Made by a program: the position numbers and the translations under genes
Source: a virus
Lineage: Duplodnaviria > Caudoviricetes
Virus record (IMG/VR): IMGVR_UViG_3300042379_000183
Location: 1,376 to 65,375 of that record
Reading direction: 5' to 3' (one strand)
Length of the DNA: 64,000 bases
Part shown: positions 8,562 to 63,758 of the stretch, piece after piece
Layout: every line of letters begins with the position of its first letter
Numbering within the stretch: position 1 is the stretch's first letter
The notes under the pieces: generated by a model
The model's input: the letters and a program-made list of their open reading frames with translations, nothing else
The model's database searches: none
Told to the model about the DNA's origin: nothing

Positions 8562-8580
8562 GGGTTAAGTTAACGGGTTG
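8562..8580 (-). promoter_or_regulatory. Class II repeated motif, copy 1 (putative phage-RNAP promoter)
   Basis: + strand GGGTTAAGTTAACGGGTTG; intergenic, upstream of the SSB/replication genes. Confidence 0.75.
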
Positions 8581-9054: not shown

Positions 9055-9526
9055 TTAAATACTCCTCTACTTCGACATATTCACAATTATTATATGCAAT
9101 AGTTGCATCAATAGTAGGGAAGATATCTGCAATAATACGAGGTATCAAGTATGTATTTCCACCTCCATTATTTGTACATAGTAAGACATATACGAAAGTA
9201 TTATTTTCAATGTACTCACAGATATCAAAAGCAGTAATTGCTTCTGTTATATTATAGTATCTATCTAAGGTTTCATGAAGTCGTAATGTTTCTACTTTAG
9301 TTAAATCTTCTGGTGTTTCTATTAAATAAATACCACCACCAAGATCTACTTGAAAATTTGATCCATACTCTTCATCATAATAAACTTCAAAGTCTTCATT
9401 ATGTTTTGCAAAAGATGTTTCAACAATCTTTAGAAAATCAGGTGAAGGGCATCTCTGTCTTAACTCAACAAGATTATTACCAAGATCTATCATTTTATTC
9501 CTATGAGAAACAATACTCACTATCAA
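9038..9526 (-). CDS. Hypothetical acidic protein
   Basis: 162-aa ORF directly downstream of the RNAP gene. Confidence 0.6.
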   Translation of the reverse strand: MIVSIVSHRNKMIDLGNNLVELRQRCPSPDFLKIVETSFAKHNEDFEVYYDEEYGSNFQVDLGGGIYLIETPEDLTKVETLRLHETLDRYYNITEAITAFDICEYIENNTFVYVLLCTNNGGGNTYLIPRIIADIFPTIDATIAYNNCEYVEVEEYLNVDNS

Positions 9527-11771
9527 GAATTAAGCTAAGGTCTAGTGTACCGAATTTTACTGCATCTATGTTTCCATGTATATCCTTTATAATACTCGTT
9601 AATGGGTCAGCTTCATACAATTCTACAAACGTCTTTCTAAGCTTTATAAACAACTGTGGCATATCAGCTAGAAGACAACCAAAAGAATCATGAATAGTTG
9701 TCACTGGAAAGTCTAACTGATTTACTGTTATTGCTAAATGTGCAGCGTCTAAGCTATGGATAATATTTGGACTTGCACCTTGAGACTGCTTTCCCTTAGA
9801 TGGTTTTACATCTTCAATAAAGCATATTGCAAGTTGCAATGTATTTGAATAATACCCACTACTTTTTCTTTCATCTTGAGGAGGTCCATACTGTACCCAT
9901 ATCTTCTTTACATTGCCCTCTGTATAGTTTTGAACTACAGGAAAGTTAGTAATTGGTACAGTCCAAGATAAGAAACGCTCTTCTTTCTCAGCTTTCTTTC
10001 CAGCATCTTCAAAGACTTTTAGAAGCTGCATTGGACGTTCTAATGAGACTCGACAATCATTAAATACTTCTCTACCCAAATATGCACCCCACCTGTGTTC
10101 CATATAAAGCAAGAGATCAATATTATGCTTTCTAGCATCATCGATAACTTGTTGACCTAGACCATATGCAGTACCACCATATGGAATTGTCATTGTATTT
10201 CTCTTGACAATTTTTCTTTTGTATTTAGCATCTTTGATTCGATACCAAAAGACAGGAGCTGCAATGCTTAGGAGATATTCATTATCTCTTTTGAACTCTT
10301 TTATCTGTTCAATTAGAGCCTTACGTAAATCACTTTTAGGCTCAGCTGCATTTATTTGTTTCTTAAGCTCAATTAGATTATCAATAAAGATCTCACAATC
10401 TTGTATCTCTTCATCTCGCATAAGAACTAACTCTTGCTTTAAATGCTCCCATACGTGATCTCCTACATACTTATAGAGGTCTCCAGGTAGATCTAAAGGT
10501 ACTAAGTTTACATGTGGTGCAATTACTTCATCTTTTGTTAATGCTGAAAGATGTTGACTTCCATTATTAGAACCATCAAGATAGGCTTCAAGATGTGATT
10601 CATACTCATAAGAAGTATAATCATCTACTTTCGTTTGCCAAATTCTAAGTTTCATCAACTCAAAACAAGCAGCTAAGAATTGCCAAGGACTATCAGCTTG
10701 CATCCAACCTTGATTTACCTTTGGTGACTCTGCATAAGACAATAGAATTTCTTCATTATCTATAGCCCAAAGATATCTATCTTTCAATGGAATCTTGTCA
10801 GTCTTAGCATTATCTTGTCTTCCTGCATCTCCAGCCCAAGCGGAAGCAATACTCACAAGTAGCCAAAAGAAGCCATCTTTACCGATTGACTTCTTATCAG
10901 CTCTTAGAAGTAAACCTCGAGCTAGATCGCTACCTTGTTCATGAAGATATGCGGTAGCAACATATTTTCTACCTCTGAAGTCATAGTAATAAAGGTGATA
11001 AAATATCTTATTAAGAAACCTTTTAGCAATATCACCAATTGCTTTCGCTTCTCTTAACTTTGTTGCACGTGCTTCTACATTATTTAATTCCCAAATATCT
11101 GAGAATGCTTCTGTTTTATTACGTAATGCCCAAGAATGAATATTGAAGATTTCTGTGTTTATCTTCCAACCAGTTTCTTGTGCACGATTTACACAATCAA
11201 AGATAATAGGGTGTGTACTTATGGATAAGCTATCGAGTACTTCTTTATTACCAGTCTTCACCAACCAAACACCTGTATCGTGTTTTGCTGTTACCCAAGG
11301 ACTATATGGCTTCTCTGATGGTAATTTTTCTATTTTGCTAGGATCAAGATTATTCCATAGATTACAGATACCATCATCATTTAAAACTTGAATAATATAC
11401 GTAGCATGCCCTTTTGCACCTTGACCGAGTACTACCTGAATATAACCGAGTTCTTCAAAAGTATAAAGCATAAATGCACCAGTCTTAGCTGCTAGCGCTG
11501 ACTCTCGTTTAAGCTTATACTTGCTTCTGATGTTATGCCCAATTGCAGCAATAACTTCTGTCAGATAGATCGAATTTTTATTTGGTCCTCGTTTAGGTCG
11601 AGTATACAAATAAATAATTGAGACTAAGTTTTCAAGATAGTCTTTACACTTATATTGGAATAAATATTTTAATGGATTATGAGCAGACACCTCTATCTGT
11701 AATCTAGATTGAATTGAGTCTAGGATAAGTTGAGCTTTAGAATTTGAAATAACTTTTTTCATCTCATTCAT
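9501..11771 (-). CDS. T7-like single-subunit DNA-directed RNA polymerase (stand-alone)
   Basis: YDFRGRKY, motif A LDGSNNGSQHLSAL, motif B RKIVKRNTMTIPYGG, SPNIIHSLDA, motif C TIHDSFG; AAGGAG RBS. Confidence 0.95.
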   Translation of the reverse strand: MNEMKKVISNSKAQLILDSIQSRLQIEVSAHNPLKYLFQYKCKDYLENLVSIIYLYTRPKRGPNKNSIYLTEVIAAIGHNIRSKYKLKRESALAAKTGAFMLYTFEELGYIQVVLGQGAKGHATYIIQVLNDDGICNLWNNLDPSKIEKLPSEKPYSPWVTAKHDTGVWLVKTGNKEVLDSLSISTHPIIFDCVNRAQETGWKINTEIFNIHSWALRNKTEAFSDIWELNNVEARATKLREAKAIGDIAKRFLNKIFYHLYYYDFRGRKYVATAYLHEQGSDLARGLLLRADKKSIGKDGFFWLLVSIASAWAGDAGRQDNAKTDKIPLKDRYLWAIDNEEILLSYAESPKVNQGWMQADSPWQFLAACFELMKLRIWQTKVDDYTSYEYESHLEAYLDGSNNGSQHLSALTKDEVIAPHVNLVPLDLPGDLYKYVGDHVWEHLKQELVLMRDEEIQDCEIFIDNLIELKKQINAAEPKSDLRKALIEQIKEFKRDNEYLLSIAAPVFWYRIKDAKYKRKIVKRNTMTIPYGGTAYGLGQQVIDDARKHNIDLLLYMEHRWGAYLGREVFNDCRVSLERPMQLLKVFEDAGKKAEKEERFLSWTVPITNFPVVQNYTEGNVKKIWVQYGPPQDERKSSGYYSNTLQLAICFIEDVKPSKGKQSQGASPNIIHSLDAAHLAITVNQLDFPVTTIHDSFGCLLADMPQLFIKLRKTFVELYEADPLTSIIKDIHGNIDAVKFGTLDLSLILDSEYCFS

Positions 11772-11972: not shown

Positions 11973-12030
11973 GAAAAAGAAAAAAAAAAATAAGAGAAAG
12001 AAAAGAAACTATCCCACGAATGGGATAGTT
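11973..12030 (-). terminator. Strong intrinsic terminator upstream of the RNAP gene
   Basis: Perfect 10-bp stem AACUAUCCCA-UUCG-UGGGAUAGUU followed by a ~35-nt U-rich tract. Confidence 0.85.
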
Positions 12031-13121: not shown

Positions 13122-13161
13122 TTCAATTCTCCATTTGGTTTAGGTTGACAGACTTTTTGTC

Positions 13162-13191
13162 TATCATATAAGATACTCTTTTTTCCGCGTT
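13162..13191 (-). promoter_or_regulatory. Class I repeated motif, copy 1 (putative early promoter)
   Basis: Minus strand AACGCGGAAAAAAGAGTATCTTATATGATA; 27/30 identical to 14157-14186. Confidence 0.7.
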
Positions 13192-13276
13192 ATAAATACG
13201 ATAAGCCTATTAAAAACCAAGTAACCAACATTGCTATCAATAGTAAATTGTTAAGAATAAAGTTAAGTGCCTTCAT
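13190..13276 (-). CDS. Small hydrophobic peptide, 28 aa (not in ORF track)
   Basis: MKALNFILNNLLLIAMLVTWFLIGLSYL*; AAGGAGA RBS. Confidence 0.55.
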   Translation of the reverse strand: MKALNFILNNLLLIAMLVTWFLIGLSYL

Positions 13277-14121: not shown

Positions 14122-14156
14122 ATTTAAATAGAGTTAAGGGCGATATGCTATTTGCT

Positions 14157-14186
14157 TATCATATAAGATACCATTATTTCCGCGTT
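14157..14186 (-). promoter_or_regulatory. Class I repeated motif, copy 2 (putative early promoter)
   Basis: Minus strand AACGCGGAAATAATGGTATCTTATATGATA, just downstream of the lysis-cassette terminator. Confidence 0.7.
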
Positions 14187-14197
14187 TTATTTTGATT

Positions 14198-15581: not shown

Positions 15582-15582
15582 T

Positions 15583-15932: not shown

Positions 15933-15951
15933 GGGTTAAGTTAACGGGTTG
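15933..15951 (-). promoter_or_regulatory. Class II repeated motif, copy 2
   Basis: + strand GGGTTAAGTTAACGGGTTG; upstream of the lysis cassette. Confidence 0.75.
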
Positions 15952-16106: not shown

Positions 16107-16115
16107 TCTCCATGC

Positions 16116-16604: not shown

Positions 16605-16621
16605 TTGAAGTTAGAATCGCA

Positions 16622-30390: not shown

Positions 30391-30404
30391 AACATTACTT
30401 TCAA

Positions 30405-30435
30405 TAAAAAACCCAGGATTGTATTTATCCTGGGT
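30405..30435 (-). terminator. Intrinsic terminator/attenuator before the tape measure gene
   Basis: ACCCAGGAU-AAAUACA-AUCCUGGGU-UUUUU. Confidence 0.75.
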
Positions 30436-30440
30436 ATGTG

Positions 30441-30770: not shown

Positions 30771-30777
30771 ACAATCC

Positions 30778-31412: not shown

Positions 31413-31413
31413 C

Positions 31414-31650
31414 TTACTCTCCTTTAAAATCCCTGGAATTACTAGCTTGGAAGTCATCCAATTGCTTCCTCATGGTATGTAATATTGATAATGTCTGAAA
31501 TACCTCTTGAGATTTTGGTTGATCACCAGCAAACTCAGAAATACGTTCAAATGTTTTACGAATACTAATATCAATACTTTTTCGCATATGTTTTGCTGTA
31601 GTACGTAAAACATATCCTGTACTGAATGGTCGATCTGTATTTTCGTCCAT
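31414..31650 (-). CDS. Hypothetical protein in the tail operon
   Basis: 78-aa helical ORF filling the gap between major tail and chaperone. Confidence 0.6.
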   Translation of the reverse strand: MDENTDRPFSTGYVLRTTAKHMRKSIDISIRKTFERISEFAGDQPKSQEVFQTLSILHTMRKQLDDFQASNSRDFKGE

Positions 31651-31725
31651 ATTTTCTTTATAATAAAAACGGGCTAGTTTAAATACTTTATTTAAGTACT
31701 TTGTAAGTACACCCCAAACTATTAA

Positions 31726-32322
31726 TTAGGCAGCGTTGCTAGTAAACGCACCATAAAAGTCAGATTGAACCGTAATTGTTACTGTAGCAGTATTTGCGTC
31801 AGTGAGTTGCGGCGTAACAAGCAAAGCCTCAATCTTTCCAAACCAGAAGTACTGGCTATTTTCAGTACTGCCAAGGCCTGCAGCTGCTGAAGAATAAACA
31901 CCTGTAGTTGGCTCAGCATTAAGCAAAGTGAAACGAAACAAACGACGGACACCATCTCCAACCATAATACCTAAAAAGTTAGGAGTTTTCTGCCAATCAG
32001 TACCAACATAGTTAAGTGTAATCTCAATCGAAGGCGAATCGGATTGACCCTGAATCTGCTGTGAAGACTTTTGCCCATAAACTGCAATATTCACAACGTT
32101 AGGCGGAGTACCCATTGCAGGGAATTCACGAACGTTTCTAATACGAATAAATTCACCAGAGGCCGTACCCGACGGTGCTACGCCGTTAGCTACTGCATTA
32201 GCAAAAGCTAATTTAAAGTTAGCTTCGGTAGGTGTAGCAAAAGCATCTGAAACTTGTGTTGCATCAACACAAACTGATAAATCAGAGAAAAGACCTGCGC
32301 CAATCGACGTAATATGTGCCAT
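31726..32322 (-). CDS. Major tail tube protein
   Basis: NVREFPAMGTPPNVVNIAVYG…QGQSDSPSIEITLNY; position. Confidence 0.8.
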   Translation of the reverse strand: MAHITSIGAGLFSDLSVCVDATQVSDAFATPTEANFKLAFANAVANGVAPSGTASGEFIRIRNVREFPAMGTPPNVVNIAVYGQKSSQQIQGQSDSPSIEITLNYVGTDWQKTPNFLGIMVGDGVRRLFRFTLLNAEPTTGVYSSAAAGLGSTENSQYFWFGKIEALLVTPQLTDANTATVTITVQSDFYGAFTSNAA

Positions 32323-32325
32323 TTA

Positions 32326-32730
32326 TTAAACTCCAAAGTAATTGAATGAAATCGTGTAACTAGACCTATATAGTGCTGGATTATCTTTATCTATTCCAAT
32401 GTTTGTTAAGGAGCTAGTAGAGAATTGCGTGACTACCTGTGCTTGAGTAGTAATGCTTTTTCCAACAAGATACTGATCTAATTTGTCTGCAATAAGAGAG
32501 GTGGATCCAGGTCCATTTCCTGCAGATGTAAATATATCTATTAAAAGTATGCCAGCAACTGACCGTAGATTTAACCCGTAGGTTCCTGAAACGATTGTGA
32601 CTCTAATAAATTCATTTCCTTGACCACTTATCGTAAAGTTAGTTGGAAATGTTTTTATATTTTCAGCTTTCCAAGCATTGCTATCAAAGATAGAGAAAAC
32701 ATTAGCTTGTAAATCAGTAAATTTACCCAT
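32326..32730 (-). CDS. Tail terminator-like protein
   Basis: GILLIDIFTSAGNG…IADKL pattern; position before the major tail gene. Confidence 0.7.
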   Translation of the reverse strand: MGKFTDLQANVFSIFDSNAWKAENIKTFPTNFTISGQGNEFIRVTIVSGTYGLNLRSVAGILLIDIFTSAGNGPGSTSLIADKLDQYLVGKSITTQAQVVTQFSTSSLTNIGIDKDNPALYRSSYTISFNYFGV

Positions 32731-33083
32731 TATGTTTCCTTGTAGATATTCACTACTATAATAAAACCATTGCCCTTTAAGACTTCACCGACATTCCAAA
32801 CTTGAGAATCAATTGTAATAGTAGAATATGCATTGATATCACCAACTTCCTTAGACTTTAACATTAGCTGTTTTTCAAGCGTGTTTCTGCCTTTGGTTTT
32901 ATTCTCTAATTCACTTACAACGGCTTTTGTTGTAATAGTTTGCGTAGAACTTATTTCAGTAACAGAAGCTCCAAAATTAAAAGTTGGATTTATTTTCTTA
33001 GTTAAAGTAACAGTTACAGCAAGATCTTTAATTGAATTAAAGGCTTTATTTAAGTTAGTGTCAATTAATGTTTGATAAGACAT
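32730..33083 (-). CDS. Head-tail joining (stopper) protein
   Basis: 117 aa, beta-rich; position. Confidence 0.6.
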   Translation of the reverse strand: MSYQTLIDTNLNKAFNSIKDLAVTVTLTKKINPTFNFGASVTEISSTQTITTKAVVSELENKTKGRNTLEKQLMLKSKEVGDINAYSTITIDSQVWNVGEVLKGNGFIIVVNIYKET

Positions 33084-33562
33084 TAATTAGCTCTCCACCA
33101 CAAATTAGCTCCATTGTTTACACGAAGTGGTTTAATAATTCGTTTAACATTATTTGGAACCTTTGAAGCAGGAAGTATTGTAGATAATTTAATACTACCA
33201 ATTGATAAATCTTTTACAATGCCGGTATCATCTAGAAGGCCATCATTATTAAGTAAGTGATATGCTAGTTCGTATGTTGCTATAATGATCCGACTAGGTA
33301 CAGATGTAGGCGATAAAGATACATCAATACCTAATCTTGGATCAAAATAAACACCATTTCTTGGAAATGCCAAAGACTGAACTTCACTTATAGCAACTCC
33401 AACCCATTCCAAAGTTTCTAGAATATTTGTAGCAGTGACCAGAGCCTGCGCTTTTTGTGGCGCAGAAGCAGCTGTCCATGCTGCAACATCAATTCGATCT
33501 TCGAAATATGTTTCAGCTTCTGCAACAGTCGCATAAGAGTTTGTTCCTTTAGCGAGTGCCAT
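33083..33562 (-). CDS. Head-tail adaptor
   Basis: NSYATVAEAETYF…QSLAFPR…VP..I..A..ELA; directly after the capsid gene. Confidence 0.75.
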   Translation of the reverse strand: MALAKGTNSYATVAEAETYFEDRIDVAAWTAASAPQKAQALVTATNILETLEWVGVAISEVQSLAFPRNGVYFDPRLGIDVSLSPTSVPSRIIIATYELAYHLLNNDGLLDDTGIVKDLSIGSIKLSTILPASKVPNNVKRIIKPLRVNNGANLWWRAN

Positions 33563-33580
33563 AAGTGTCTTTCTTATTTA

Positions 33581-34768
33581 TTAAGAGTGGAAAACCGGGA
33601 GAATACCAAGAGTCAATGCCGATTGTGTTTTGCGAATCCATGTTCCAGTTGTGGAAGCTAGGGTACCGGACACAACATCAGTCAGCGCAAGTGGAGTAGA
33701 GCCTTCAATCGCATAGCCATAAGAAGCATTAGACGGGAACGCGCTATCCAAACCGGCCCAATTGTAGCCAGCCGGGTGAAGCACATAGCCCCAACGATTC
33801 CACACAGCAGTAGTACCACCACCTTTATAGGCAGCAGCCGAGCGCTGAATTTCAACATTTTCAGGGATTGTCAGCGATTCCATTGCAAGAGCACCAGGCA
33901 ACACAAGGAACGAGGTCTTTGTACCAACAACATCAACACCAGCACCAGTATTGATTTTAGTCAATTCAGCGGTGCTAAAACCCTGAGAGGCACGAGTTTG
34001 AATCAAACGGAATTTACCATTAAAGATGGTGCTGAAATTAACGTTACCATCAGCAATTGTAGTCGAATCAACTAAATTAGCAGAACGGAAAGAGGCTAAT
34101 GTTTCAGGACTGCAAACCAGATAAGCATAATCAGGCTCATAATCTTTAAATGCCATACCGAATGCACGAAGGAAACCTTCAGCACGAGCAGCACCTTGGA
34201 CAGCAGCAGTAGCATCAATAACAGGCTTTGCGGCACCCAAGTCAACATAAAAGCCATAACGCTTGTTGGTAGGATCATTATCAAATGTCTGACCACCAAG
34301 GCCAACAGCACCAGAGGCAGCTGCAGCGCCATTCAGCGTCTCAGAAAGAGCAACACCACGAAGCACGGCAAGAATAGCGTTATGCTCGTCTTGCGCACGG
34401 GTTTCACCAAAGTCACGACCAATTTTAGCAAGACCATCAACTTGAGTAACCACTTGCTGCAGATTAACTTTAGTAGCGCCATGAGTGCGAACACTCTTAA
34501 CGTACGTCATGTAATCCGAAGCGTATGTAGTACCAGTACCATCAGTCGAATCAGTAAGCGAAGCAATGTTGATGGTAGGGGTCAAAGGCTTGTACCAGCG
34601 CATTTGACCGATAAATGTTTCGGTATTAACATCAATCAGGGGATTAGCACCAACAATACCAGTACCCGATAACTTTCTTGCATTTGTATATGCTTCGTCA
34701 GAGTAAGCGCTAATGCTCTCTTGTAAGACAAAGTTATCTGCGCCAGCAAGATTTGTTTTCACAGTCAT
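33581..34768 (-). CDS. Major capsid protein
   Basis: 395 aa, follows scaffold, biased high-expression codon use, RWGYVLHPAGYNW near the C-terminus. Confidence 0.85.
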   Translation of the reverse strand: MTVKTNLAGADNFVLQESISAYSDEAYTNARKLSGTGIVGANPLIDVNTETFIGQMRWYKPLTPTINIASLTDSTDGTGTTYASDYMTYVKSVRTHGATKVNLQQVVTQVDGLAKIGRDFGETRAQDEHNAILAVLRGVALSETLNGAAAASGAVGLGGQTFDNDPTNKRYGFYVDLGAAKPVIDATAAVQGAARAEGFLRAFGMAFKDYEPDYAYLVCSPETLASFRSANLVDSTTIADGNVNFSTIFNGKFRLIQTRASQGFSTAELTKINTGAGVDVVGTKTSFLVLPGALAMESLTIPENVEIQRSAAAYKGGGTTAVWNRWGYVLHPAGYNWAGLDSAFPSNASYGYAIEGSTPLALTDVVSGTLASTTGTWIRKTQSALTLGILPVFHS

Positions 34769-34779
34769 TTTAATTCCTT

Positions 34780-35445
34780 TTATCGTCTATTAGTAGGAAG
34801 TTTACCTTCCCGAGCCATTTTCATAACATCTTCTTGTGACATTGAAAAGAGTGATTTCTTTTCTGTACTCGAAGTATTTGTAGTTCCTACAGATGTGCTA
34901 CCACTGCCATTAGAAGCCTTAGGCTTTAACAGAAATGAATTAGATTCATTATCTGTAAATTGCTTCACAAAATCCCTTAATGGAATTCCAGATTTATGGA
35001 GCCAGACACCTTGTTCATTTCTGACAAGTTGCGTTACAATTTCACGATAGGCCATATCAGAAGCACTATCATTCCTAAATGTGTACGCCTGGAGAGCATT
35101 ACGCAGTTCTAGATCTCGTGTGAGTTCAATAGTACGCGTTTCTAATGCTTCTCTTTTTGCTCTTTCTTCTGCAAGTTGCAATTCTAAAGCTTCTTTGTGC
35201 TTTCCTTCGTCTTGAAGCCTTTTTAATTCAGCTTCCTTACGAACTTGATCCATCTCAGCAACCTTACGAAGAGCATCATCACGTCCCTTATAGGCTTTAT
35301 CAAGGTTTTCCTTCATATTGCCAATAGCTTCTGCAACCTTTTCTCTTACAAGCTTCTGAACGGGATCTTCAGTTTGTTGTGAATCTTGACCCTTATTTTC
35401 AGTGTCTTCGATAACAACATTGGTACTAGTAACATCATCTGACAT
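34780..35445 (-). CDS. Capsid scaffolding protein
   Basis: Acidic N-terminus, long coiled coil, FLLKPKASNGSGS; directly upstream of the capsid gene. Confidence 0.8.
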   Translation of the reverse strand: MSDDVTSTNVVIEDTENKGQDSQQTEDPVQKLVREKVAEAIGNMKENLDKAYKGRDDALRKVAEMDQVRKEAELKRLQDEGKHKEALELQLAEERAKREALETRTIELTRDLELRNALQAYTFRNDSASDMAYREIVTQLVRNEQGVWLHKSGIPLRDFVKQFTDNESNSFLLKPKASNGSGSTSVGTTNTSSTEKKSLFSMSQEDVMKMAREGKLPTNRR

Positions 35446-35529
35446 TTTATTTCCTTTGAGTACAACTCATATTAATAAAGATACAATCTTTACTTAAATC
35501 GATTAGGTGAATTTATGTAAATCACACCT

Positions 35530-35548
35530 GGGTTAATTTAACGGGTTG
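35530..35548 (-). promoter_or_regulatory. Class II repeated motif, copy 3
   Basis: + strand GGGTTAATTTAACGGGTTG; right after the MuF-RNAP stop, upstream of scaffold/capsid. Confidence 0.75.
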
Positions 35549-35550
35549 GC

Positions 35551-38500
35551 TTAACCAACACCATACCAACTAAAATCAGTCACAAACCCTGGAGGAACCT
35601 TTTTTAAAATATCTTCCTTCTTTAAGATATCAGATTCTTTAAGAAGTTTTCCACCAACACGAGACCTACCAGGAACTGGAATAAGTCCAATATCAATAGC
35701 TTCATTTAGATATTTATCATATAATGCAGGAGGGAGTCCTCTTGCTTTCATCTCATTTAAGGTCATTAAGATAACATTGTTATTTAACATTTCAGCATAG
35801 ATTTCTCTTAGTGCTTGTCTTGCTGGTAACATGTCCGTTGCATTTGCAAAGAAAGCATCATGGATTGTAGAAGTAGGTACCTTATTCTTTTTACCCCATA
35901 AATGAAATTGTTTAACAATAACAGCATCATTAGAATGATTACCATTAACAGCAAAAGCAGTTCTTGCCTTACCTGAGTCTGCAATATCATTTATCTTACC
36001 AGACTTATTAATAACTTGTTGCCACCAAGTAGCCTCTGTCTTTTGTGGGATTTGAAGAATGTTAGTAGTCCAATTTCCATCTTTATCTCTATACGTTAAT
36101 CGCTCTTCAAATGTTTGGGTAAAATTCTGTTCAATTGTCTTTCCATCAAAATTTACCCAAGGAATATTTGTCCAGCTTTTTGGTAGTTTATTAGCATAAA
36201 AGATTTCTAATTCATTTAGATTTTTAACTTCTAATAAATCAACTTTTAAGTACTTTCCACCAGTACGTCTTGTCTCTGCTGCTTTAACTCCATATATAAT
36301 ATCACTGAGCGTTCCATTTGGTTCCCAAAAGCCAAAACGCTTTAATATCTTTTCACTAACAGCTTCATTAGCTTTTAAACCTAAAAGACGACTAACTGAA
36401 TCAGGTAAAACATAACCTTTTTTCTTTTGACCTAACAAAGAGATCTTAGCAATTGTCTTCCAATCAAAATCACTATCAGAAGGTTTTGCGTTAATGATAA
36501 AATCTTCTGCAAGCCTGCCAAAATACTTAGTGAAATCTTTCAAGATAGGAACTTGCTCACTTAAGTACTCACTCATTATCTTTGCAATATTTTTAAAGTC
36601 CTCTGGTGTAACAATTTTATCATATGACCTAGTCATCTTCTCAACTAAGTCTCTAGTTGCTGGATCTAAGAAATATAATTGTTCCATTATGTCATCACCA
36701 GGATCAAGACCCTTATTAAAAATATCTTTTACATTTTCTCTGAGAACTCTTAATTCATTTGCAGTATCCATATCAAACTTCTCAAATCGTGCTATTCTAG
36801 CAGAGATTTCGTTTAATACAATCTCTCTATCAGATGCTTTTACAACTAAGACATTTTCATCTTTACCTAAGATTTTAGAAAGCTTTCCTTCTACATTCAA
36901 TGCACCTGTTCTTTCACCGGCACCATAGAAGGTTACCATATTCTGTGCTTTAGCAGCCTTCCTTAAATCTTTTTCAGATAAGCCTAACTTTTCATTTAAC
37001 TTTCTAAATCTAATATCATTAAATGTTGAGCTAGCAATTTCGTCATATAGTCTTTTCTTTTGGGAAGTAGGGACTACATTACTTAGTTCTGCAAGTTGTT
37101 TATTCTTAGTCGTTAATGCAATAATTTGTGCACCAGAAGAAGAAGCATCTTGCTCTAACGCTAATGCGATTTCATAGTCTTTTAACTTTAACAAGTTCTT
37201 AGCAGTATAACTACCTTCTAAATAATTATCTATCTTTGCTATCTCTAAAGCAAATCGTAGAAATTTATTTAACTCTTCACCATCTACTTTAGAAAAAATC
37301 TCTGAATCTAAAATAGCACGTAAGTCTGCTGGTTTCTTACGAAGCATATTATTGCCAAGTTTAACCAGCTCTGGTCGCCATTTTACTGCAATTTTTTGTC
37401 TACCTGTAACAGTTAGTGAATTAAACTTACCTTCAAAATGATCGCTTAATCCACCTAAGAATGCACCAACTTGATCTTGTAAGTTACCGAAGTCATCAAC
37501 ACTAAACTTTTTAATTTCAGCTGTATTTAAAAATGGTCTGAATGTCTCGCCTGATTGAGGACTAATAAGACCTCTATCATAAATTCTCGCTCTATGATCG
37601 ATAAAAGGATGGTTACTAAAGGCAGTATCATCTTTACGTAACCACTCCATTGCTTTGAATCGTTCATAGGCATCACCGCGATTTGCAATATATTTTCTAT
37701 ATTCATTCAAATCATTATACTTCTTTGCTTGACCTCTATCATCTTCAAAGTACAGCAATTTTTGTGTGAAATCAAAATAGTCTTTATCTATTCGATACTT
37801 AGTTTTTGAAGCCCAATTTAATGCATCTATTAAATTCTTATCAACAAACTCTTCTGGAAAATCGCTAAAGCTAGAAGTAGAGGTAATTGGAATACGAGTA
37901 TCCTCATAACCAAAGATACCTTGATCAATAAAATATGTTTTATAACCTTCTCTAAAGACTAATTTATTTTTATCTTCTGTTACACTAACTCTTAATCCAA
38001 CTTCAACTTTACGAGTGAGTTTAGAGTATTCCTGAATTCTAGGATCGGTAACACGGATATTATAAGATAATGTATCGTAGTATGGACCAAAGTAACTATT
38101 ACTCAAACGACTCTTCATTCTTCTTTTCTGCACACCAAAAGTCTCTACTTCAAAGAACTTACTCACATTCTTTGCTTCTAATAGCTTAGAGCCTAATTCA
38201 TACCAGGTACGACGATATCCATTTACATTTGCTAAGTTATACAAGTCACGACCGAGAGCTACTGCAAATTGATCTCTATCTGGTGTATCTGCTAAACTAA
38301 GACGATGTGCAAATCTTAAATAGAACTGTTGTAAATCTCTATCTGAAATTCTACTACTTATCAGTAATGGAATTTTTCTATCAAAGACATTTCTAAGTTC
38401 TAACGCTATCTTTGGTGCAACAGTATCTTCCCATTTATTCTTAGCAAGAATATTAGGAATGAAGTTATCATGTAAGTCTTGTAACTGAGTGGGACCAAGA

Positions 38501-40179
38501 ACTGGATCTAAGTAACTATCTTGTAATAGCTTCTTTAAAAAATCAGAATTCTTTCTAATTTGTGTTTCAATTGAATCAGAAACGTTCATGATATCGAACT
38601 TGATTTGACTCTGAACAACAGCTTTAAAATTAGTCCAAATCTCTTTATTATCTCGGTATCTACCAAAAATAATTCTTAAATTATCAGCAACAACAGCTTG
38701 CTCATTAACACTCATTTTATCTGCTAACGTATTAATAACAGAGTTAATAAATGTTTTGTCATCTTCTAATAACTTATCACTAGTTTCAATAAGTCTTAAA
38801 TTATTAGTTAACACACTAGGATTAGGTTGATAAAGTCTTACATCTTCATATCTAGAAGTAATTGGATTAAACTTAAGCTGATCCTCTCTAGGTGGATTTG
38901 CTAATACTCTATTCTTTACACCTCTCTTTACATTTAGTAAGGTGCCTCTATAATTTGTTAAAGAAAGTGTACCATCTAACTCACCAGATTGCAGAAGATA
39001 ATAATCAATTAATGTTTGTTTTAATTTAGAATTAGAAATAAAATCATCAGGAGTAGATGCACCTAGTTGCATAGCATCTAACTTCTCTTTTGCTTTTGCA
39101 AATTTACGTGTATCGTTTGGTAATGTATAACTACTATCAGACAATGTACGTAATTCTTTAATACCAATTGAATTACCTTCTGGATTTGTAAATCTATCTA
39201 AAGTTAGTTGACCTGAGTTAAATAATTCAACTTTCTGATAATCACCAAGATGTCTAATTTTTACATCTTGTGGTTGTCGTAATAGCCAAGTGTTATACGA
39301 CTCTCTCATTGGCGTTAGGCCATCATAAAACTGAATTTCAGCGTCAGATAATCCTTTTAAGTTTCTACGTCTAACTTGTGATACACCTTCTAATTTACCA
39401 ATATCTTCCCATGATTTAAAAACAGGAACTGTAGTAGATCTACAATGAAAGTGTGCAGGAGGTAAATGTACTGTGTCAGTTGTTGGATAAATCGTTCCAT
39501 CTCTATGTGCGCATAAGGAAGTTGTTCTTGAATCTAGGACTGCAACATATTGCCAACCGGTTAAGGCTTTCTCATTTGCTTTATAGATTGCTTGATCTGT
39601 TTGAGCCGTTACCGATGTAATTGCAGTAATGACAAGTGCTTTAGACTGAGTTCTACTGATATTATAAATATTAGTTTTTCTTACCTCTAAAGCAATTTCA
39701 TCAACTGTCATTCCAGTAGCAATACCACGTCTGATTGTGGCATCAATACGTTTCTTTTCATTAATACTTACGCTAGCCCAACCAGCAGCTAATGTTTTGT
39801 TTTCAAATAAAGGCTGATTAAGAACTACATCTTCAGCAATACGTACTGGAGGTCTTTCTGCCTTCCAGATCTTTCCCATTGATGTTTCAATAGTTTGATA
39901 GGTAAAAGAAAGTTGATCAGAAACTAAATCTAATAAAGATCTCTTTGATGTGTTAAAGGTTTCTTTAAATGTAGCTTGTAGCTCTTGATCAACTGCTTCT
40001 CTAAGTGTCTCAAAGCCCTTTTGAGATGCCGTAGCATTTTTAATAAGTTTATCTAATCGGACTTCATGGCCATCCAATACTAACGATATCTTACTATTTA
40101 CACGACGCTCATAAAGCCGAATCATTGCGGCACGATCAAGAGTCCTATCGTAAATTTTGGTATTAGCATTGGATAGCAT
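35551..40179 (-). CDS. MuF (SPP1 gp7-like) head morphogenesis domain fused to a T7-like single-subunit RNA polymerase
   Basis: N-terminal WQYVAVLDSRTTSLC…PPAHFHCRS; C-terminal IDHRARIY, motif A EQDASSSGAQ, motif B RKAAKAQNMVTFYGAG, NHSNDA, motif C TIHDAF; start placed at ATG 40179. Confidence 0.9.
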   Translation of the reverse strand: MLSNANTKIYDRTLDRAAMIRLYERRVNSKISLVLDGHEVRLDKLIKNATASQKGFETLREAVDQELQATFKETFNTSKRSLLDLVSDQLSFTYQTIETSMGKIWKAERPPVRIAEDVVLNQPLFENKTLAAGWASVSINEKKRIDATIRRGIATGMTVDEIALEVRKTNIYNISRTQSKALVITAITSVTAQTDQAIYKANEKALTGWQYVAVLDSRTTSLCAHRDGTIYPTTDTVHLPPAHFHCRSTTVPVFKSWEDIGKLEGVSQVRRRNLKGLSDAEIQFYDGLTPMRESYNTWLLRQPQDVKIRHLGDYQKVELFNSGQLTLDRFTNPEGNSIGIKELRTLSDSSYTLPNDTRKFAKAKEKLDAMQLGASTPDDFISNSKLKQTLIDYYLLQSGELDGTLSLTNYRGTLLNVKRGVKNRVLANPPREDQLKFNPITSRYEDVRLYQPNPSVLTNNLRLIETSDKLLEDDKTFINSVINTLADKMSVNEQAVVADNLRIIFGRYRDNKEIWTNFKAVVQSQIKFDIMNVSDSIETQIRKNSDFLKKLLQDSYLDPVLGPTQLQDLHDNFIPNILAKNKWEDTVAPKIALELRNVFDRKIPLLISSRISDRDLQQFYLRFAHRLSLADTPDRDQFAVALGRDLYNLANVNGYRRTWYELGSKLLEAKNVSKFFEVETFGVQKRRMKSRLSNSYFGPYYDTLSYNIRVTDPRIQEYSKLTRKVEVGLRVSVTEDKNKLVFREGYKTYFIDQGIFGYEDTRIPITSTSSFSDFPEEFVDKNLIDALNWASKTKYRIDKDYFDFTQKLLYFEDDRGQAKKYNDLNEYRKYIANRGDAYERFKAMEWLRKDDTAFSNHPFIDHRARIYDRGLISPQSGETFRPFLNTAEIKKFSVDDFGNLQDQVGAFLGGLSDHFEGKFNSLTVTGRQKIAVKWRPELVKLGNNMLRKKPADLRAILDSEIFSKVDGEELNKFLRFALEIAKIDNYLEGSYTAKNLLKLKDYEIALALEQDASSSGAQIIALTTKNKQLAELSNVVPTSQKKRLYDEIASSTFNDIRFRKLNEKLGLSEKDLRKAAKAQNMVTFYGAGERTGALNVEGKLSKILGKDENVLVVKASDREIVLNEISARIARFEKFDMDTANELRVLRENVKDIFNKGLDPGDDIMEQLYFLDPATRDLVEKMTRSYDKIVTPEDFKNIAKIMSEYLSEQVPILKDFTKYFGRLAEDFIINAKPSDSDFDWKTIAKISLLGQKKKGYVLPDSVSRLLGLKANEAVSEKILKRFGFWEPNGTLSDIIYGVKAAETRRTGGKYLKVDLLEVKNLNELEIFYANKLPKSWTNIPWVNFDGKTIEQNFTQTFEERLTYRDKDGNWTTNILQIPQKTEATWWQQVINKSGKINDIADSGKARTAFAVNGNHSNDAVIVKQFHLWGKKNKVPTSTIHDAFFANATDMLPARQALREIYAEMLNNNVILMTLNEMKARGLPPALYDKYLNEAIDIGLIPVPGRSRVGGKLLKESDILKKEDILKKVPPGFVTDFSWYGVG

Positions 40180-40180
40180 G

Positions 40181-40330
40181 TTACGCCTTTGATTGTTTAA
40201 CTTTCTTCTTTGCTTCTTTAGCAACACTTAATGCAATAGCCACAGCTTGCTTTTGTGGTTTTCCCGATTTCATTTCTTTGCCAATATTAGAAGAAACTGT
40301 TTTTGGCGAGTATCCCTTTTTTAATGGCAT
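40181..40330 (-). CDS. Small basic protein, 49 aa (not in ORF track)
   Basis: MPLKKGYSPKTVSSNIGKEMKSGKPQKQAVAIALSVAKEAKKKVKQSKA*; AGGA RBS; resembles a common small phage head-region protein. Confidence 0.75.
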   Translation of the reverse strand: MPLKKGYSPKTVSSNIGKEMKSGKPQKQAVAIALSVAKEAKKKVKQSKA

Positions 40331-40342
40331 TTAATTTCCTTA

Positions 40343-41917
40343 TTAAACTTGCTGATCTTGTAGTTGTTTAGCATATTGATCTGAACCGTTTGCTGTCATT
40401 GCAGCTGCAGCATCTTCGGTTATTTCAACTTTACCACTCTCATCATCATAGTCAGGAGGTAAGATATCATTTTGCTTAAGAATCATTAACCAAACAGATC
40501 TAGGGATTAATCCTTGTTGATACCATTCAGTTGTAAGTCTTAACCAATCCGCACCTAATGGCGTAGGATTGAAGTCAGCAGAAAGACTAAATTTAACATC
40601 ATAGACTTTTAATTCTGTATTATATCTCCAGTTAATCATAAATGCAATAACTTGAGCTAAGATAGCACTAACTTTAGTATTAAGAGTACCTAACTGAGCT
40701 GTTTGTGCAGCATTCCTAATTTCTAAAGCAACACCAGACTGAGCAGTTTCAGGTGTTAGCATCCTGATACCTAACTTAGCCATCTCTTCAATAGTTGCTG
40801 CAATGGCTCTATCCATATCCTGAAGAGCTGCTGTAGGTGTTTCTAATACTTTAGCATCATCACCTTGACGTAACCTAATCCAAGTACCTAAACCAGAATC
40901 AACAATATTCTGAAAGTCATCATCTGACATATCAGAGATAATAACAGGTGTATAGGTAGATGCACCATATAATAAATGGTTCCTTCTACTTAGCTTATTG
41001 TAAAGGCTTAATTCCTTATCAATAATCGGTGATAGCATTGGTTCTACTGCATCAATACTACCATTCAAAGGCCAAGCAGGAATCATGGTAAGACGTTCAC
41101 CATTTGCAAGAATATTAGTTAAAGTTTCAACTAATTCAAAATGTGCTTTATTTTGACTAGGTTGTTTAATCTGTTGTCCTGCAATAATAGGAACATTTGT
41201 TACGCTATCAAGTCTTTGAAAGATTCTAATTTGATATTGATTTGATTCATCTAGTTCATGAACCCAAACAGTATCTTTAAATGTAGGATGAAACTCATTC
41301 TGATTATATTCTTCTTTATAACCACGAACAATAACTCTATCTAAGATTGTTTTACCATACTCATTATCTCTTACTCTCCAATTTACAATAGTTTCTGCCT
41401 TATGTAAAATAGGGTAAGGCTTAAAAAGTAACTTTTCCGAAGTAGTCAGTGTCTCTGGATTAGCTACAGAAGGATAATCCACAAACACCCAAGCACGACT
41501 TGTTTGTACTTCTTCCCAAAGAGCAGCATCTAAAAAAGATGACATGGAACTATCATCTCTTCCAAATTCATTCATGATCCAATCATAAGCTTCTTGGGGA
41601 GCTGAATCTGGTAATTCAAGGATAGGCTTTTTACGTAATAGACCACCAACAATCATTTTAGAAAACTGTGCAGTAATACCCGGTAACTCTGCTTCTGCTT
41701 TATAAAAATTATATTGCTGTTGAGACATACTGGGCGAGAAAGGAATCAATAGATTGCTAAAACTAATTGTATCAACAATACCATCAAAGTCCTTTACAAA
41801 ACGCTCCCCACTACACACAGCCCTACTTTTGTTCCAAAGGGGTTTCAATGATTCATACGACGCATTTGGGTCTGCAACTGTCTTAACTGCAGCTTGGGCA
41901 GCGTTTACTACGGCCAT
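40343..41917 (-). CDS. Portal protein (DUF4055-like)
   Basis: 524 aa; VGGLLRKKP, GRAWVFVDYP-like motif, IVNWR; upstream of MuF/scaffold/capsid. Confidence 0.85.
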   Translation of the reverse strand: MAVVNAAQAAVKTVADPNASYESLKPLWNKSRAVCSGERFVKDFDGIVDTISFSNLLIPFSPSMSQQQYNFYKAEAELPGITAQFSKMIVGGLLRKKPILELPDSAPQEAYDWIMNEFGRDDSSMSSFLDAALWEEVQTSRAWVFVDYPSVANPETLTTSEKLLFKPYPILHKAETIVNWRVRDNEYGKTILDRVIVRGYKEEYNQNEFHPTFKDTVWVHELDESNQYQIRIFQRLDSVTNVPIIAGQQIKQPSQNKAHFELVETLTNILANGERLTMIPAWPLNGSIDAVEPMLSPIIDKELSLYNKLSRRNHLLYGASTYTPVIISDMSDDDFQNIVDSGLGTWIRLRQGDDAKVLETPTAALQDMDRAIAATIEEMAKLGIRMLTPETAQSGVALEIRNAAQTAQLGTLNTKVSAILAQVIAFMINWRYNTELKVYDVKFSLSADFNPTPLGADWLRLTTEWYQQGLIPRSVWLMILKQNDILPPDYDDESGKVEITEDAAAAMTANGSDQYAKQLQDQQV

Positions 41918-41919
41918 AA

Positions 41920-42198
41920 TTAACCTCTCAATTTAATATTAAATTCTTCAATAGTTCCAACAAAAACTTCAGATGAATCATTATTCTTTGCAGTAATAAT
42001 ATCATTCTCTTCTGAAATGAACCAACTTGATGGATTTCTATTCACAAAAGCAGTACTTACAGTTACGGTTTGGATTGGAGCTACTGAAACCATTGAAACA
42101 GGTGTCAATACAACTTCTGGTACTATCATATCAGGTGCCATCATTTTATCGGGTACCATTACCTTATCAGTTACTGTTAATTTCATTTTTGGTTCCAT
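41920..42198 (-). CDS. Hypothetical protein
   Basis: 92-aa ORF coupled to its neighbours. Confidence 0.55.
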   Translation of the reverse strand: MEPKMKLTVTDKVMVPDKMMAPDMIVPEVVLTPVSMVSVAPIQTVTVSTAFVNRNPSSWFISEENDIITAKNNDSSEVFVGTIEEFNIKLRG

Positions 42199-42455
42199 TA
42201 TCTATCAGCTTTGTTACTGAGTTTATCGTCGATGCGATCTAATTTCTTAAATATTGCATCTGCTATTTTATCAAACTCTTCTCGTTTGACGTAGTTACCT
42301 GCAACTAAAACTTCAATAGATGATAGTTTTTCAGCAAGCTGTCGATCAGCAGTTTGGAGATCCTTTAAAGTTTCCCACATTACTTTCATCCACCAGCCTC
42401 CAAGAACACCTAAAATTGATAAAACAAAATCAAAAAGCCGTGGTACCGAATCCAT
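42198..42455 (-). CDS. TM plus coiled-coil protein (holin/XhlA-like architecture)
   Basis: N-terminal TM, YVKREEF…IFKKLDRIDDKL. Confidence 0.55.
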   Translation of the reverse strand: MDSVPRLFDFVLSILGVLGGWWMKVMWETLKDLQTADRQLAEKLSSIEVLVAGNYVKREEFDKIADAIFKKLDRIDDKLSNKADR

Positions 42456-42498
42456 TGGATCCTCCGTTTTTTCTAATTTTAATATTCATAATGATTAT

Positions 42499-42816
42499 TT
42501 AATAATATTCAATTAATTGCCAGTTAGCTGAAGAACTCATCCAATAGCTGGAATTCCTATAAAATGGCCCATATAAAGTAAGAACAGTAGCCGCTATTGA
42601 ACTAAGTTGGGCTTGAATAATCATTGGATTAAGCATGCTATTGGGAGTAATATCAAAGTACCCACCGCTAACTATAACCATACATTTAAGCGGATTAACC
42701 GTACTAATTGATATAGCTGTACTAGAACCACCGTTTGACGTTGAATATGAACCGGATTGTATTGACTTTACCCCACCTGTTGTAAATTGAGTTAAATTAC
42801 TCATAATGTGATCCAC
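42499..42816 (-). CDS. Virion fibre-associated protein, paralog of 51851..52150
   Basis: VKSIQSG…ISISTVNP.K…WQLIEY. Confidence 0.65.
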   Translation of the reverse strand: MDHIMSNLTQFTTGGVKSIQSGSYSTSNGGSSTAISISTVNPLKCMVIVSGGYFDITPNSMLNPMIIQAQLSSIAATVLTLYGPFYRNSSYWMSSSANWQLIEYY

Positions 42817-43367
42817 CCTAGAGTTGTATTAATATATCTAAGCTGTAATGTAATATAAGCTGTGGTATTTATTGTAAGATTTTCTAATAATCCCATTATT
42901 TTATTTCCATTATACGCAATTACATTAGTAGATAGTGCATTACCTGAGGTAATATAAATCAAATTTCCAGCAATAGGACTGGCTGGTAATGTTATTGTAG
43001 ATGCGGAAGCATTAGTTAATACATAATGATTTCCCGCAGTAGCTGTTTGAGTGGTGGCAGTAACAATAATTAGAGTTGGTGCACCTGTTGCAGCAGTTAC
43101 TTGAATTGTAGCGTCTGGAAATTTAAAGCCACTAGTAGTAGATTCTATTTGTCCCACAACAGTAAGTTTACTAGTCGGAGAAGCAGTTCCAATACCCATA
43201 CCACCTGTGGTAGTAATACTTGTAGCGGAAACTGTCCCAGTAGTAATTGCTGTGGCATTTAAATTAAGATAACTGCCTGATTGATCTAGTGCATTAGGTA
43301 CCGCTGTTAATAATTTAGCTTTGGTGGTCATGTTGGTGTAACAGGAATGAGATTCATAATTACCCAA
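42801..43367 (-). CDS. Fibre protein, paralog of the C-terminus of 53478..55814
   Basis: GIGTASP, GQIESTTSGFKFPD, TITLPASP.AG domain. Confidence 0.65.
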   Translation of the reverse strand: MGNYESHSCYTNMTTKAKLLTAVPNALDQSGSYLNLNATAITTGTVSATSITTTGGMGIGTASPTSKLTVVGQIESTTSGFKFPDATIQVTAATGAPTLIIVTATTQTATAGNHYVLTNASASTITLPASPIAGNLIYITSGNALSTNVIAYNGNKIMGLLENLTINTTAYITLQLRYINTTLGWITL

Positions 43368-43687
43368 GTCCCTGTGGTTTCATTCCAAGTATAAATGTTA
43401 CTGTCAGTTGGTCGAGGTAGCGGAGCTTCCCACAGACATGTATCTTCATTAAGTAACCAGCTTGGATATGGTTTCGGAGGAATAAAAGCATCCCTGACTA
43501 AATCGTACGTATAGCCTACACCCGCGTAATTCTTACGTAAAGGTGTACCTTCTGGATGTGCGCCGCCATATGTATTATAACTAGTTTGAACCCAGCTTGT
43601 GCCAAATAGACCCGAGTCGATGACGTCTTGATCCGCTACAATTACGTTAGTAACGATGCCGTCAACTACTTGTGCAAAATGAGACAT
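43328..43687 (-). CDS. Conserved phage protein of glycine-rich fibre loci
   Basis: MSHFAQ…WVQTSYN…RKNYAGVGYTYD…DAFIPPKPYPSW. Confidence 0.7.
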   Translation of the reverse strand: MSHFAQVVDGIVTNVIVADQDVIDSGLFGTSWVQTSYNTYGGAHPEGTPLRKNYAGVGYTYDLVRDAFIPPKPYPSWLLNEDTCLWEAPLPRPTDSNIYTWNETTGTWVIMNLIPVTPT

Positions 43688-43698
43688 ATTTTCTCTCC

Positions 43699-44571: not shown

Positions 44572-44573
44572 GG

Positions 44574-45219: not shown

Positions 45220-45226
45220 ACTATCC

Positions 45227-63739: not shown

Positions 63740-63758
63740 GGGTTAATTTAACGGGTTG
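63740..63758 (-). promoter_or_regulatory. Class II repeated motif, copy 4
   Basis: + strand GGGTTAATTTAACGGGTTG; upstream of the packaging genes. Confidence 0.75.

Follow-up and report, generated by a model that had tools for sequence, protein, structure and literature searches.

A MuF head protein fused to a T7-like RNA polymerase: a candidate capsid-delivered enzyme in a long-tailed phage with two classes of promoter-like motif

A phage known from the IMG/VR record IMGVR_UViG_3300042379_000183 (Duplodnaviria; Caudoviricetes) contains a gene predicted to encode a MuF-type head protein joined to a T7-like RNA polymerase (RNAP). The window, by which we mean the whole stretch of DNA that was analysed, is 64,000 nucleotides long and corresponds to bases 1376-65375 of a source record of 65,375 bp that is rated 94% complete. 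The gene lies at 35551..40179 on the minus strand, and all of the sequence and fold tests that we ran place its product in the MuF family as well as among the T7-like RNAPs. We propose that the phage probably uses a two-polymerase relay like that of phage N4, in which the fused RNAP would be packaged, be ejected and start transcription before a second, standalone RNAP takes over. The carriage of cargo by MuF proteins and the single-subunit virion RNAP are each known, and their combination was not found in the literature that we searched.

The initial annotation of this DNA, made from the sequence alone, described one uninterrupted open reading frame (ORF) of about 1540 amino acids and gave no strand for it. 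The ORF is indeed uninterrupted, starts with ATG, includes its stop codon within the coordinates given above and encodes 1542 amino acids on the minus strand. An alternative GTG start at 40227 would add 16 residues to give a protein of 1558 amino acids; the starts of the homologues coincide with the position of the ATG. The predicted protein comprises a MuF or SPP1-gp7-type minor head module (residues 1-350; 39130..40179), a linker (residues 351-563; 38491..39129) and a T7-like single-subunit RNAP (residues 564-1542; 35554..38490), all encoded on the minus strand.

Profile comparisons bore out the MuF domain that had been assigned to the N-terminus. Pfam Phage_Mu_F (PF04233) matched residues 144-250 with 51 bits against a cut-off of 29.6, and the head morphogenesis family phrog_241 matched residues 1-349 at 9.3e-60. 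The MuF signature is found as WQYVAVLDSRTTSLC at residues 209-223 and PPAHFHCRS at residues 240-248, and the fusion is the sole MuF match across the 65,375-bp record. A structural model of residues 1-570, with a predicted local distance difference test score (pLDDT) of 86.5, had 100 matches in BFVD at E ≤ 0.001. Those with names among the 50 matches listed are minor capsid or head morphogenesis proteins, for example A0A6G5YJ26 (target-normalised template modelling score 0.79, root-mean-square deviation (rmsd) 3.9, 375 columns), and the fold matches include the MuF-ADP-ribosyltransferase of phage Xp12. A Foldseek search of the PDB with the same model gave no match at E ≤ 0.001. The linker that follows is mostly helical, modelled with confidence and itself conserved among relatives. 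Alignment to solved RNAPs starts only after it, at about model residue 222, that is, protein residue 564. A complex prediction for the portal protein with MuF residues 1-375 scored 0.00 against a mark of 0.32; it was made without controls and counts neither way.

The fused C-terminal part appears, from its sequence, to be a complete and active T7-type polymerase with an N-terminal domain, thumb, palm and fingers. Pfam RNA_pol (PF00940) matched it with 46.8 bits against a cut-off of 22, and PHROG RNA polymerase families matched residues 830-1093. The initial annotation had read the single-subunit RNAP motifs in T7 order, and this order held: DHRARIY lies at residues 861-867, DASSSG at 1011-1016, RKAAK..FYGAG at 1073-1088, HSNDA at 1415-1419 and IHDAF at 1439-1443, with an insertion of about 185 amino acids in the fingers between motif B and the HSND motif. 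Alignment of the family profile to T7 RNAP with hhalign (probability 99.3%, E 4.5e-20) paired all of the catalytic residues. D861, R863, R865 and Y867 are matched to T7 D421, R423, R425 and Y427; D1011 to D537; R1073, K1077, Y1085 and G1086 to R627, K631, Y639 and G640; H1415 and D1418 to H784 and D787; and H1440 and D1441 to H811 and D812. D537 and D812 are the two metal-binding Asp residues of T7 RNAP. The pairing in motif B is taken from hhalign; a MAFFT alignment alone had this motif misplaced.

Comparison of structures agreed with the comparison of profiles. An AlphaFold2 model of residues 343-1542, made from an alignment of 32 sequences (pLDDT 82.6, predicted template modelling score 0.74), was aligned by VIA to T7 RNAP with a Z score of 30.0 and an rmsd of 3.4 Å over 525 residues, spanning model residues 226-1200 and T7 residues 38-883. 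The yeast and human mitochondrial RNAPs aligned with Z scores of 25-28. For the N4 mini-virion RNAP (mini-vRNAP), the other enzyme against which the initial annotation had proposed a structural check, Z scores were 17-20. Foldseek found 74 PDB matches at E ≤ 0.001, and the top-ranked ones listed are all single-subunit RNAPs. When the whole protein was searched by sequence against the PDB, no match was significant, N4 RNAP2 (6dt7_B, E 0.56) being the best of those relevant. In a multiple alignment the fused RNAP is 19% identical to T7 RNAP.

We examined a diverse set of 24 full-length relatives that are 17-52% identical to the window protein. At E ≤ 0.001 the MuF domain is kept in 23 of them and RNA_pol in 20. 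Residues D1011, D1418, D1441 and R865 are invariant in all 24, and K1077, Y1085 and G1086 are nearly so; the disrupted active site that would have spoken against the earlier proposal was thus not found. In a collection of 5.8 billion proteins, both Pfam domains are present in 112 of the 120 best homologues, and the eight that lack MuF are short (879-1302 amino acids). The polymerase part alone has only 150 matches at E ≤ 0.001 in a library of 1.84 billion representatives. Where these matches are about 1240 amino acids or longer, the polymerase match starts at residue 669-1297, with P0260 as the exception. Among close relatives, identity is 82-65% in the polymerase half and 77-58% in the MuF half of the same proteins, so that conservation of the former equals or exceeds that of the latter. 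Gene order is also kept: of 30 related viral loci, 21 have the portal gene upstream of the fusion and the other nine include at most 1246 nt of sequence there, and the scaffold gene lies downstream in 21 of the 30. The possibility that the fusion is an assembly chimera, or is split in all relatives, had been raised with the initial annotation; by these sequence comparisons the fusion is ancestral and widespread and not an assembly chimera.

When the polymerase part was compared with 50,697 GenBank phage records, only EBPR siphovirus 1, DSS3_VP1 (two records) and DSS3_PM1 were matched. The locus of EBPR siphovirus 1 is annotated as a head protein, an HNH endonuclease and a hypothetical protein. 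The first of these pieces stops at the position of window-protein residue 1082, inside motif B, and the last resumes at residue 1112. A group I intron match (RF00028, 40.5 bits against a gathering score of 50, E 1.6e-8) falls exactly at the break, and the intron-like RNA with its HNH ORF occupies positions 11176-12036 of the locus (L001), within polymerase motif B. From its sequence this looks like an intron with a homing endonuclease and not a split gene. Group I introns typically settle in conserved sites of functional genes. Four further loci (L055, L059, L060 and L062) match the fusion gene over 5.5-7.4 kb, which is longer than the gene itself (4.6 kb) and suggests introns or inserted genes there too. 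Four relatives (P0008, P0031, P0067 and P0104; 1626-1699 amino acids) have unrelated domains inserted at one hotspot near window residue 987, ahead of motif A; two of the inserts carry a putatively ParB-like DGxHR motif.

The cultured roseophages DSS3_VP1 and DSS3_PM1 (Naomviridae) carry the fusion as well. Their protein (YP_010105321.1) is 28% identical to the window protein over 99% of its length and is annotated "head morphogenesis". DSS3_VP1 resembles the window phage in its portal-fusion-capsid order, its second RNAP, its collinear replication module and a two-copy repeat that is like the class I element described below. DSS3_VP1 and DSS3_PM1 grow on Ruegeria pomeroyi DSS-3, and DSS3_VP1, like the window phage as judged from its genes, is of the siphovirus type, its morphology having been seen by electron microscopy (PMC8323127). 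DSS3_VP1 differs in being marine and in having deoxyuridine (dU)-substituted DNA (PMC8323127); a deoxycytidylate deaminase is annotated in it, and none was seen among the window ORFs scanned. The term "RNA polymerase" has no occurrence in the main text of the DSS3_VP1 paper (PMC8323127). The initial annotation had remarked that it knew of no characterised example of a MuF-RNAP fusion. We likewise found no description of one in the full-text literature, with subscription journals and supplements outside the search, and to this we add that the gene is already present in two cultured phages under another name.

Virion-borne RNAPs are known from N4-like podophages, where they are single-subunit enzymes, and from jumbo and crAss-like phages, where they are multisubunit. 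In N4 a virion RNAP is packaged and injected to transcribe the early genes, a second RNAP of the phage then follows it, and N4-like virion RNAPs are described as confined to N4-like phages (PMC5512222). In SPP1 the portal protein gp6 binds gp7 strongly and targets a few copies of it to the procapsid interior; virions without gp7 are only about 25% infectious, and gp7 supports the start of infection (PMC6316719). Proteins like gp7 can carry C-terminal toxins that are proposed to be delivered at infection (PMC6316719), and MuF has been viewed as a head-packaging module for injected enzymes (PMC5512222, PMC9503650).

The genes around the fusion are those of a phage head. Upstream of it on the minus strand is a gene for a portal protein of 524 amino acids (40343..41917; phrog_145, 7.6e-55). 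The portal gene ends 164 nt before the fusion gene, and between them is a single small basic ORF of 49 amino acids (40181..40330, minus strand; from the sequence and ORF list), the stop codon of which abuts the fusion gene, ending two bases before its ATG. This ORF is conserved in four of 30 related loci by tblastn. Downstream, also on the minus strand, are genes for a head scaffolding protein (34780..35445; phrog_206, 3e-08) and a major head protein (33581..34768; phrog_247, 1.9e-20). These PHROG matches uphold the portal-MuF-scaffold position reported earlier: the fusion occupies the slot of gp7, between portal and scaffold, and sits within the late head operon as judged from gene order. Among the PHROG matches examined there was no prohead protease between the portal and capsid genes. 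A PHROG scan also placed a gene for a tape measure protein of 2346 amino acids at 23350-30390, and the structural module is of the long-tailed, siphovirus type.

The window contains a second polymerase gene. At 9501..11771 on the minus strand is a gene predicted to encode a standalone T7-like RNAP of 756 amino acids (PF00940, 211.8 bits; phrog_414, 4.5e-110). It is 31% identical to T7 RNAP, compared with 19% for the fused enzyme, and the two are therefore not recent duplicates; DSS3_VP1 carries the same pair. The replication genes are T7-like and encode a gp2.5-like single-stranded DNA-binding protein, a nucleotide kinase, a family A DNA polymerase, a gp6-like exonuclease and a gp4-like primase/helicase. 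A ribonucleotide reductase gene is also part of this module, and its gene order is collinear with that of DSS3_VP1. All genes of at least 100 amino acids on the gene map are on the minus strand, and they follow a one-direction, T7-like order of small ORFs, RNAP, replication, packaging and head, tail, and lysis. About 250 nt ahead of the standalone RNAP gene is a terminator- or attenuator-like hairpin with a long T-run (12007..12030, minus strand). In the window (11772-12030), as at the same place in most of the relatives displayed, a strong hairpin is followed by a T-run of 10 to about 27 T and then by a small hydrophobic ORF directly ahead of this gene.

Two classes of promoter-like motif were found in the window. 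Both are directional and strongly conserved, and they are partitioned by position. The class I element consists of a GCG-A-rich box followed by the invariant GTATCTTATATGA, its invariant block being a contiguous 13 nt plus the upstream GCG. The window has two copies, both on the minus strand. Copy 1, at 14156..14187, reads ..GCGGAAA..N..GTATCTTATATGATA and has a position weight matrix (PWM) score of 45.7; copy 2, at 13161..13192, scores 43.6, and no other position in the window scores above 12.4. The lysis cassette is closed by a terminator-like hairpin at 14202-14221, which precedes copy 1. Each copy heads three small ORFs; those that were tested gave no family match. Class I is present one to three times in 11 of 23 related loci, and every copy precedes the standalone RNAP gene on the coding strand. 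Of the 12 loci that lack it, 11 hold less than 2 kb of upstream sequence and the twelfth, with an RNAP that is 47% identical, has a core variant with two mismatches. In whole related records of 63-97 kb, four of five have one to three copies, found only ahead of the standalone RNAP gene.

A class I-like repeat is also present in the marine phage DSS3_VP1. We scanned the 60.4 kb of DSS3_VP1 (120,806 positions) with a class I weight matrix built from 21 distinct sites. The matrix ranked the two copies of this genome's only exact repeat of 33 nt (35790 and 36237 in NC_055826) first and second, with scores of 5.7 and 4.7, and the next position scored 0.2. The repeat had been found independently of the matrix and lies just after the tape-measure terminator, ahead of small genes that lead to the RNAP gene. 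Class I might also be the operator of a dimeric regulator, as its core forms an imperfect palindrome in 11 of 23 sites and does not in the other 12. The strict orientation on one strand and the non-palindromic flanks argue that the element is directional, and the partial palindrome stays a caveat.

The class II motif, CAACCCGTTAAMTTAACCC, occurs without mismatch four times in the window, where chance would give 0.04 copies, and each time it is on the coding strand. One (35530..35548, minus strand) begins 2 nt after the stop codon of the fusion gene, ahead of the scaffold and capsid genes. The other three, also on the minus strand, lie ahead of the packaging (terminase) and head module (63740..63758), the lysis cassette with its endolysin gene at 14407-14910 (15933..15951) and the replication module (8562..8580). 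The motif is found downstream of the fusion gene in 13 of 30 related loci and of the standalone RNAP gene in 16 of 23. Five whole related records contain one to five dispersed copies (four or five in three of them), on the same strand as the gene matches apart from one stray in the record G003; in G005 there is a single copy with one mismatch. GACGT follows two of the class II copies in the window. The 3' half of class II resembles the 5' part of the T3 promoter; we rejected this as evidence, as the sequence that follows the motif varies between the four copies.

Other repeats were seen near class II or in DSS3_VP1. In the 387-nt gap between the class II copy and the first packaging ORF (window 63394-63780) there are four to five palindromes of the AAAGACGTCTTT type, candidates for an operator or for a pac or small-terminase site. 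DSS3_VP1 has six coding-strand copies of ATAGGGTGCGTTAAAGA (record positions 19202, 19237, 45926, 46393, 46551 and 59196) and three of the variant GGTGACGTTAAAG. By its sequence this repeat is a candidate second promoter class of DSS3_VP1, and it has CGTTAAA in common with the class II motif of the window.

The initial annotation proposed that a polymerase delivered with the DNA would carry out early transcription independently of the host. The idea of delivery is retained here, and the picture of a single enzyme gives way to a relay, which is likelier in a genome that also encodes the standalone RNAP of 756 amino acids. In this proposal, the MuF/gp7 module would take the fusion protein via the portal into the procapsid. 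The protein, the C-terminal two thirds of which would be an active T7-type DNA-dependent RNA polymerase, would be made late with the head genes and be of no use to the cell that produces it. A few copies would be packaged and, when the virion next infects a cell, be ejected along with the DNA, and the enzyme would transcribe the genes that enter first. Its promoters would be the two class I elements (14187-14156 and 13192-13161), giving transcripts of the two clusters of small ORFs that would continue through the attenuating hairpin and T-run into the standalone RNAP gene. The standalone RNAP would then read the four class II motifs ahead of the replication, packaging and head, head-tail, and lysis modules. 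Because the standalone RNAP cannot make its own first transcript, class I should be read either by the host RNAP or by a phage enzyme made beforehand. We find a packaged RNAP the most economical model because of the biology of MuF and gp7, the view of MuF as a packaging module, the position of the gene in the late operon and the partition of the motifs. Portal binding, packaging, ejection, polymerase activity and the pairing of each motif with its reader are steps that we infer. The specific assignment of class I to the fused RNAP and of class II to the standalone RNAP is tentative, and a shade more apt to fail than to hold.

Several points weigh against this proposal. The MuF module had no match among solved structures, and docking at the portal would follow from homology to SPP1 gp7. 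Class I is given to the fused enzyme by elimination; it could instead be an operator, or a promoter for the host enzyme carrying an unusual sigma factor. One whole record that has the fusion gene, G005, lacks an exact class I core, and the matrix scores in DSS3_VP1 are top-ranked yet low in absolute terms. Transcripts from the class I operons would meet a hairpin with a T-run before they reach the standalone RNAP gene, and the proposal relies on read-through there. It also requires a protein of about 177 kDa to travel down a tail that is long, as judged from the tape measure protein of 2346 amino acids.

Three other explanations deserve attention. The fusion protein might be packaged and ejected while host RNAP reads the early genes at class I, leaving the fused RNAP to draw in the genome by transcription, to prime replication or to act as a back-up if the host enzyme is blocked. 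In T7, host RNAP reads the early genes and transcription pulls the genome into the cell, and the window phage has a T7-like gene order. The class I copies in the window also have a -10-like TATGAT with TTGCGG 16 nt upstream, and those in DSS3_VP1 contain a perfect TATAAT. However, class I fits a host sigma-70 promoter poorly because its invariant part spans what would be the spacer, the upstream TT of the -35-like element is only weakly conserved by information content, and the final T of the -10-like hexamer is present in only 11 of 23 sites and lost in the other 12. Scanning 11700-16300 for sigma-70 promoters gave 16 sites where 16.2 +/- 3.3 would be expected; the region shows no enrichment, and the class I sites are not among the 16. 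Moreover, a lake-water phage and phages that infect a marine alphaproteobacterium have class I in common, which is easier to explain by a reader borne by the phage than by two different host sigma factors. We therefore regard transcription of class I by the host enzyme as unlikely.

It is likewise improbable that the fused RNAP works solely in the producing cell, in late-gene or packaging-coupled transcription, with MuF doing its usual job in assembly and the polymerase being cleaved off or idle in the next infection. This explanation would account for the location of the gene in the late head operon and for the class II motif directly after its stop codon, as the head genes downstream need a phage polymerase late. 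Against this, the standalone RNAP is already there for the middle and late genes, the covalent link is kept across relatives of 17-52% identity with a conserved linker at 351-563, the PHROG matches examined between the portal and capsid genes included no prohead protease, and the literature treats the partners of other MuF fusions as cargo for delivery (PMC5512222, PMC6316719, PMC9503650). That the polymerase part has decayed to a non-catalytic domain, kept for structure or for binding DNA inside the head, we consider scarcely credible. Its PF00940 score is weak and canonical T7-like RNAPs fall short of E 1e-3 by tblastn, but every catalytic residue mapped by hhalign is present and invariant or nearly so in the family, the fold is complete at Z 30 over T7 residues 38-883, and the intron-like element of EBPR siphovirus 1 has settled in motif B. 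The packaged and ejected RNAP thus remains the explanation that we prefer.

We compared the fusion with the known systems that it resembles. N4 gp50 is about 3500 amino acids long, and its early promoters take the form of a hairpin. The window phage is like N4 in having two very different single-subunit RNAPs, and the N4 mini-vRNAP aligns to our model by VIA (3c46_B, Z 20.1; 2po4, Z 16.8). The fused RNAP is nevertheless closer in fold to the T7 and mitochondrial RNAPs (Z 25-30) than to that of N4 (Z 17-20), and at 1542 amino acids the whole protein is shorter than the much larger gp50 (chain 9pnt, 2444 residues). The domain architecture of gp50, a giant polyprotein with its polymerase in the middle and an encapsidation region at the C-terminus (PMC5512222), was not seen, as the polymerase of the fusion runs to the C-terminus and Pfam finds Mu_F and RNA_pol only. 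The candidate early element, class I, does not appear to be a conserved hairpin, its palindromic 3' arm being lost in about half of the sites, and N4 is a podovirus whereas the tape measure gene marks the window phage as long-tailed. Both gp50 and the fusion are single-subunit RNAPs of the T7 superfamily encoded among late virion genes, but gp50 is targeted to the head by a C-terminal region with a zincin-like domain and not by an N-terminal MuF (PMC5512222).

The free RNAP of T7 is an early protein and not a component of the virion. The window phage shares with T7 and other Autographiviridae the polymerase fold and all of its catalytic motifs, the replication genes and the one-direction gene order; the fused enzyme differs in its identity of 19%, its fingers insertion of about 185 amino acids and about 560 extra N-terminal residues. 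With SPP1 gp7 and Mu F the fusion shares its Pfam and PHROG membership, a gene that follows that of the portal and a minor-capsid fold. It resembles other MuF fusions in having a C-terminal enzyme that would ride MuF into the head (PMC5512222, PMC6316719, PMC9503650), and it differs in that the cargo is a polymerase of about 1000 amino acids and not a toxin, ADP-ribosyltransferase, RNase or alarmone synthetase. The MuF polymorphic toxins are a described family (PMC6316719, PMC11806420), but here the next gene encodes a scaffold and not an immunity protein. MuF toxins have been described in temperate phages (PMC6316719), whereas the window phage has T7-like lytic replication genes.

Some further features of the window were noted. 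ARAGORN found no tRNA genes in it, Rfam matched no family at its gathering score, and a megablast comparison of 30000-50000 with the 50,697 phage records gave no match. The region 43699-50584 has a G+C content of up to 44-48%, and Gly-rich repeats, seen as GGT/GGC runs on the coding strand, are frequent in its ORFs. One of these encodes a protein of 1785 amino acids with PHROG matches to tail and virion structural proteins, and the region also has three related N-terminal or leader segments. A small ORF at window 3900-4397 has a PHROG match to "NAD synthetase" (7.9e-16), as does one at 17092-17616 of the DSS3_VP1 locus (L065), and in both phages it lies between the exonuclease and primase/helicase genes. 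DNA near-identical to window 8000-16500 is present in lake-water metagenome runs from several studies, and four runs besides the likely source contain at least half of the sampled words of this region; none of the runs listed as containing it is of RNA. A variant strain diverges just upstream of the first class I core, with a loose end at 14172. Across four DNA runs, window 6000-22000 is a single contig in the likely source run and fragmented in the others.

To what was known of these phages we add the two motif classes, the conservation of class I into DSS3_VP1, the residue map made with hhalign and the position of the intron in motif B of EBPR siphovirus 1. The design appears to be common, with 420 homologues at E ≤ 0.001 among 8000 scored candidates and with the phage itself in lake-water metagenomes of several studies. 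If our proposal is true, it would provide a further route to host-independent early transcription, in which a compact T7-type RNAP on a MuF tag enters through a long non-contractile tail, and it would mean that MuF is able to carry an enzyme of about 130 kDa. More broadly, this could be a second, independent invention of a capsid-delivered single-subunit RNAP, with a T7-type enzyme placed on the universal MuF/gp7 portal tag in a large clade of long-tailed phages, from uncultured freshwater members to the marine Naomviridae, that transcribe without host RNAP from two promoter classes, the early one of which is conserved throughout; this is an idea that we take seriously and stop just short of calling probable. 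The dU-substituted DNA of DSS3_VP1 may link the use of a phage's own polymerases to modified genomes. The polymerases and their motifs may offer new orthogonal polymerase-promoter pairs as tools, and the fusion design is open to bench work now in the cultured phages DSS3_VP1 and DSS3_PM1.

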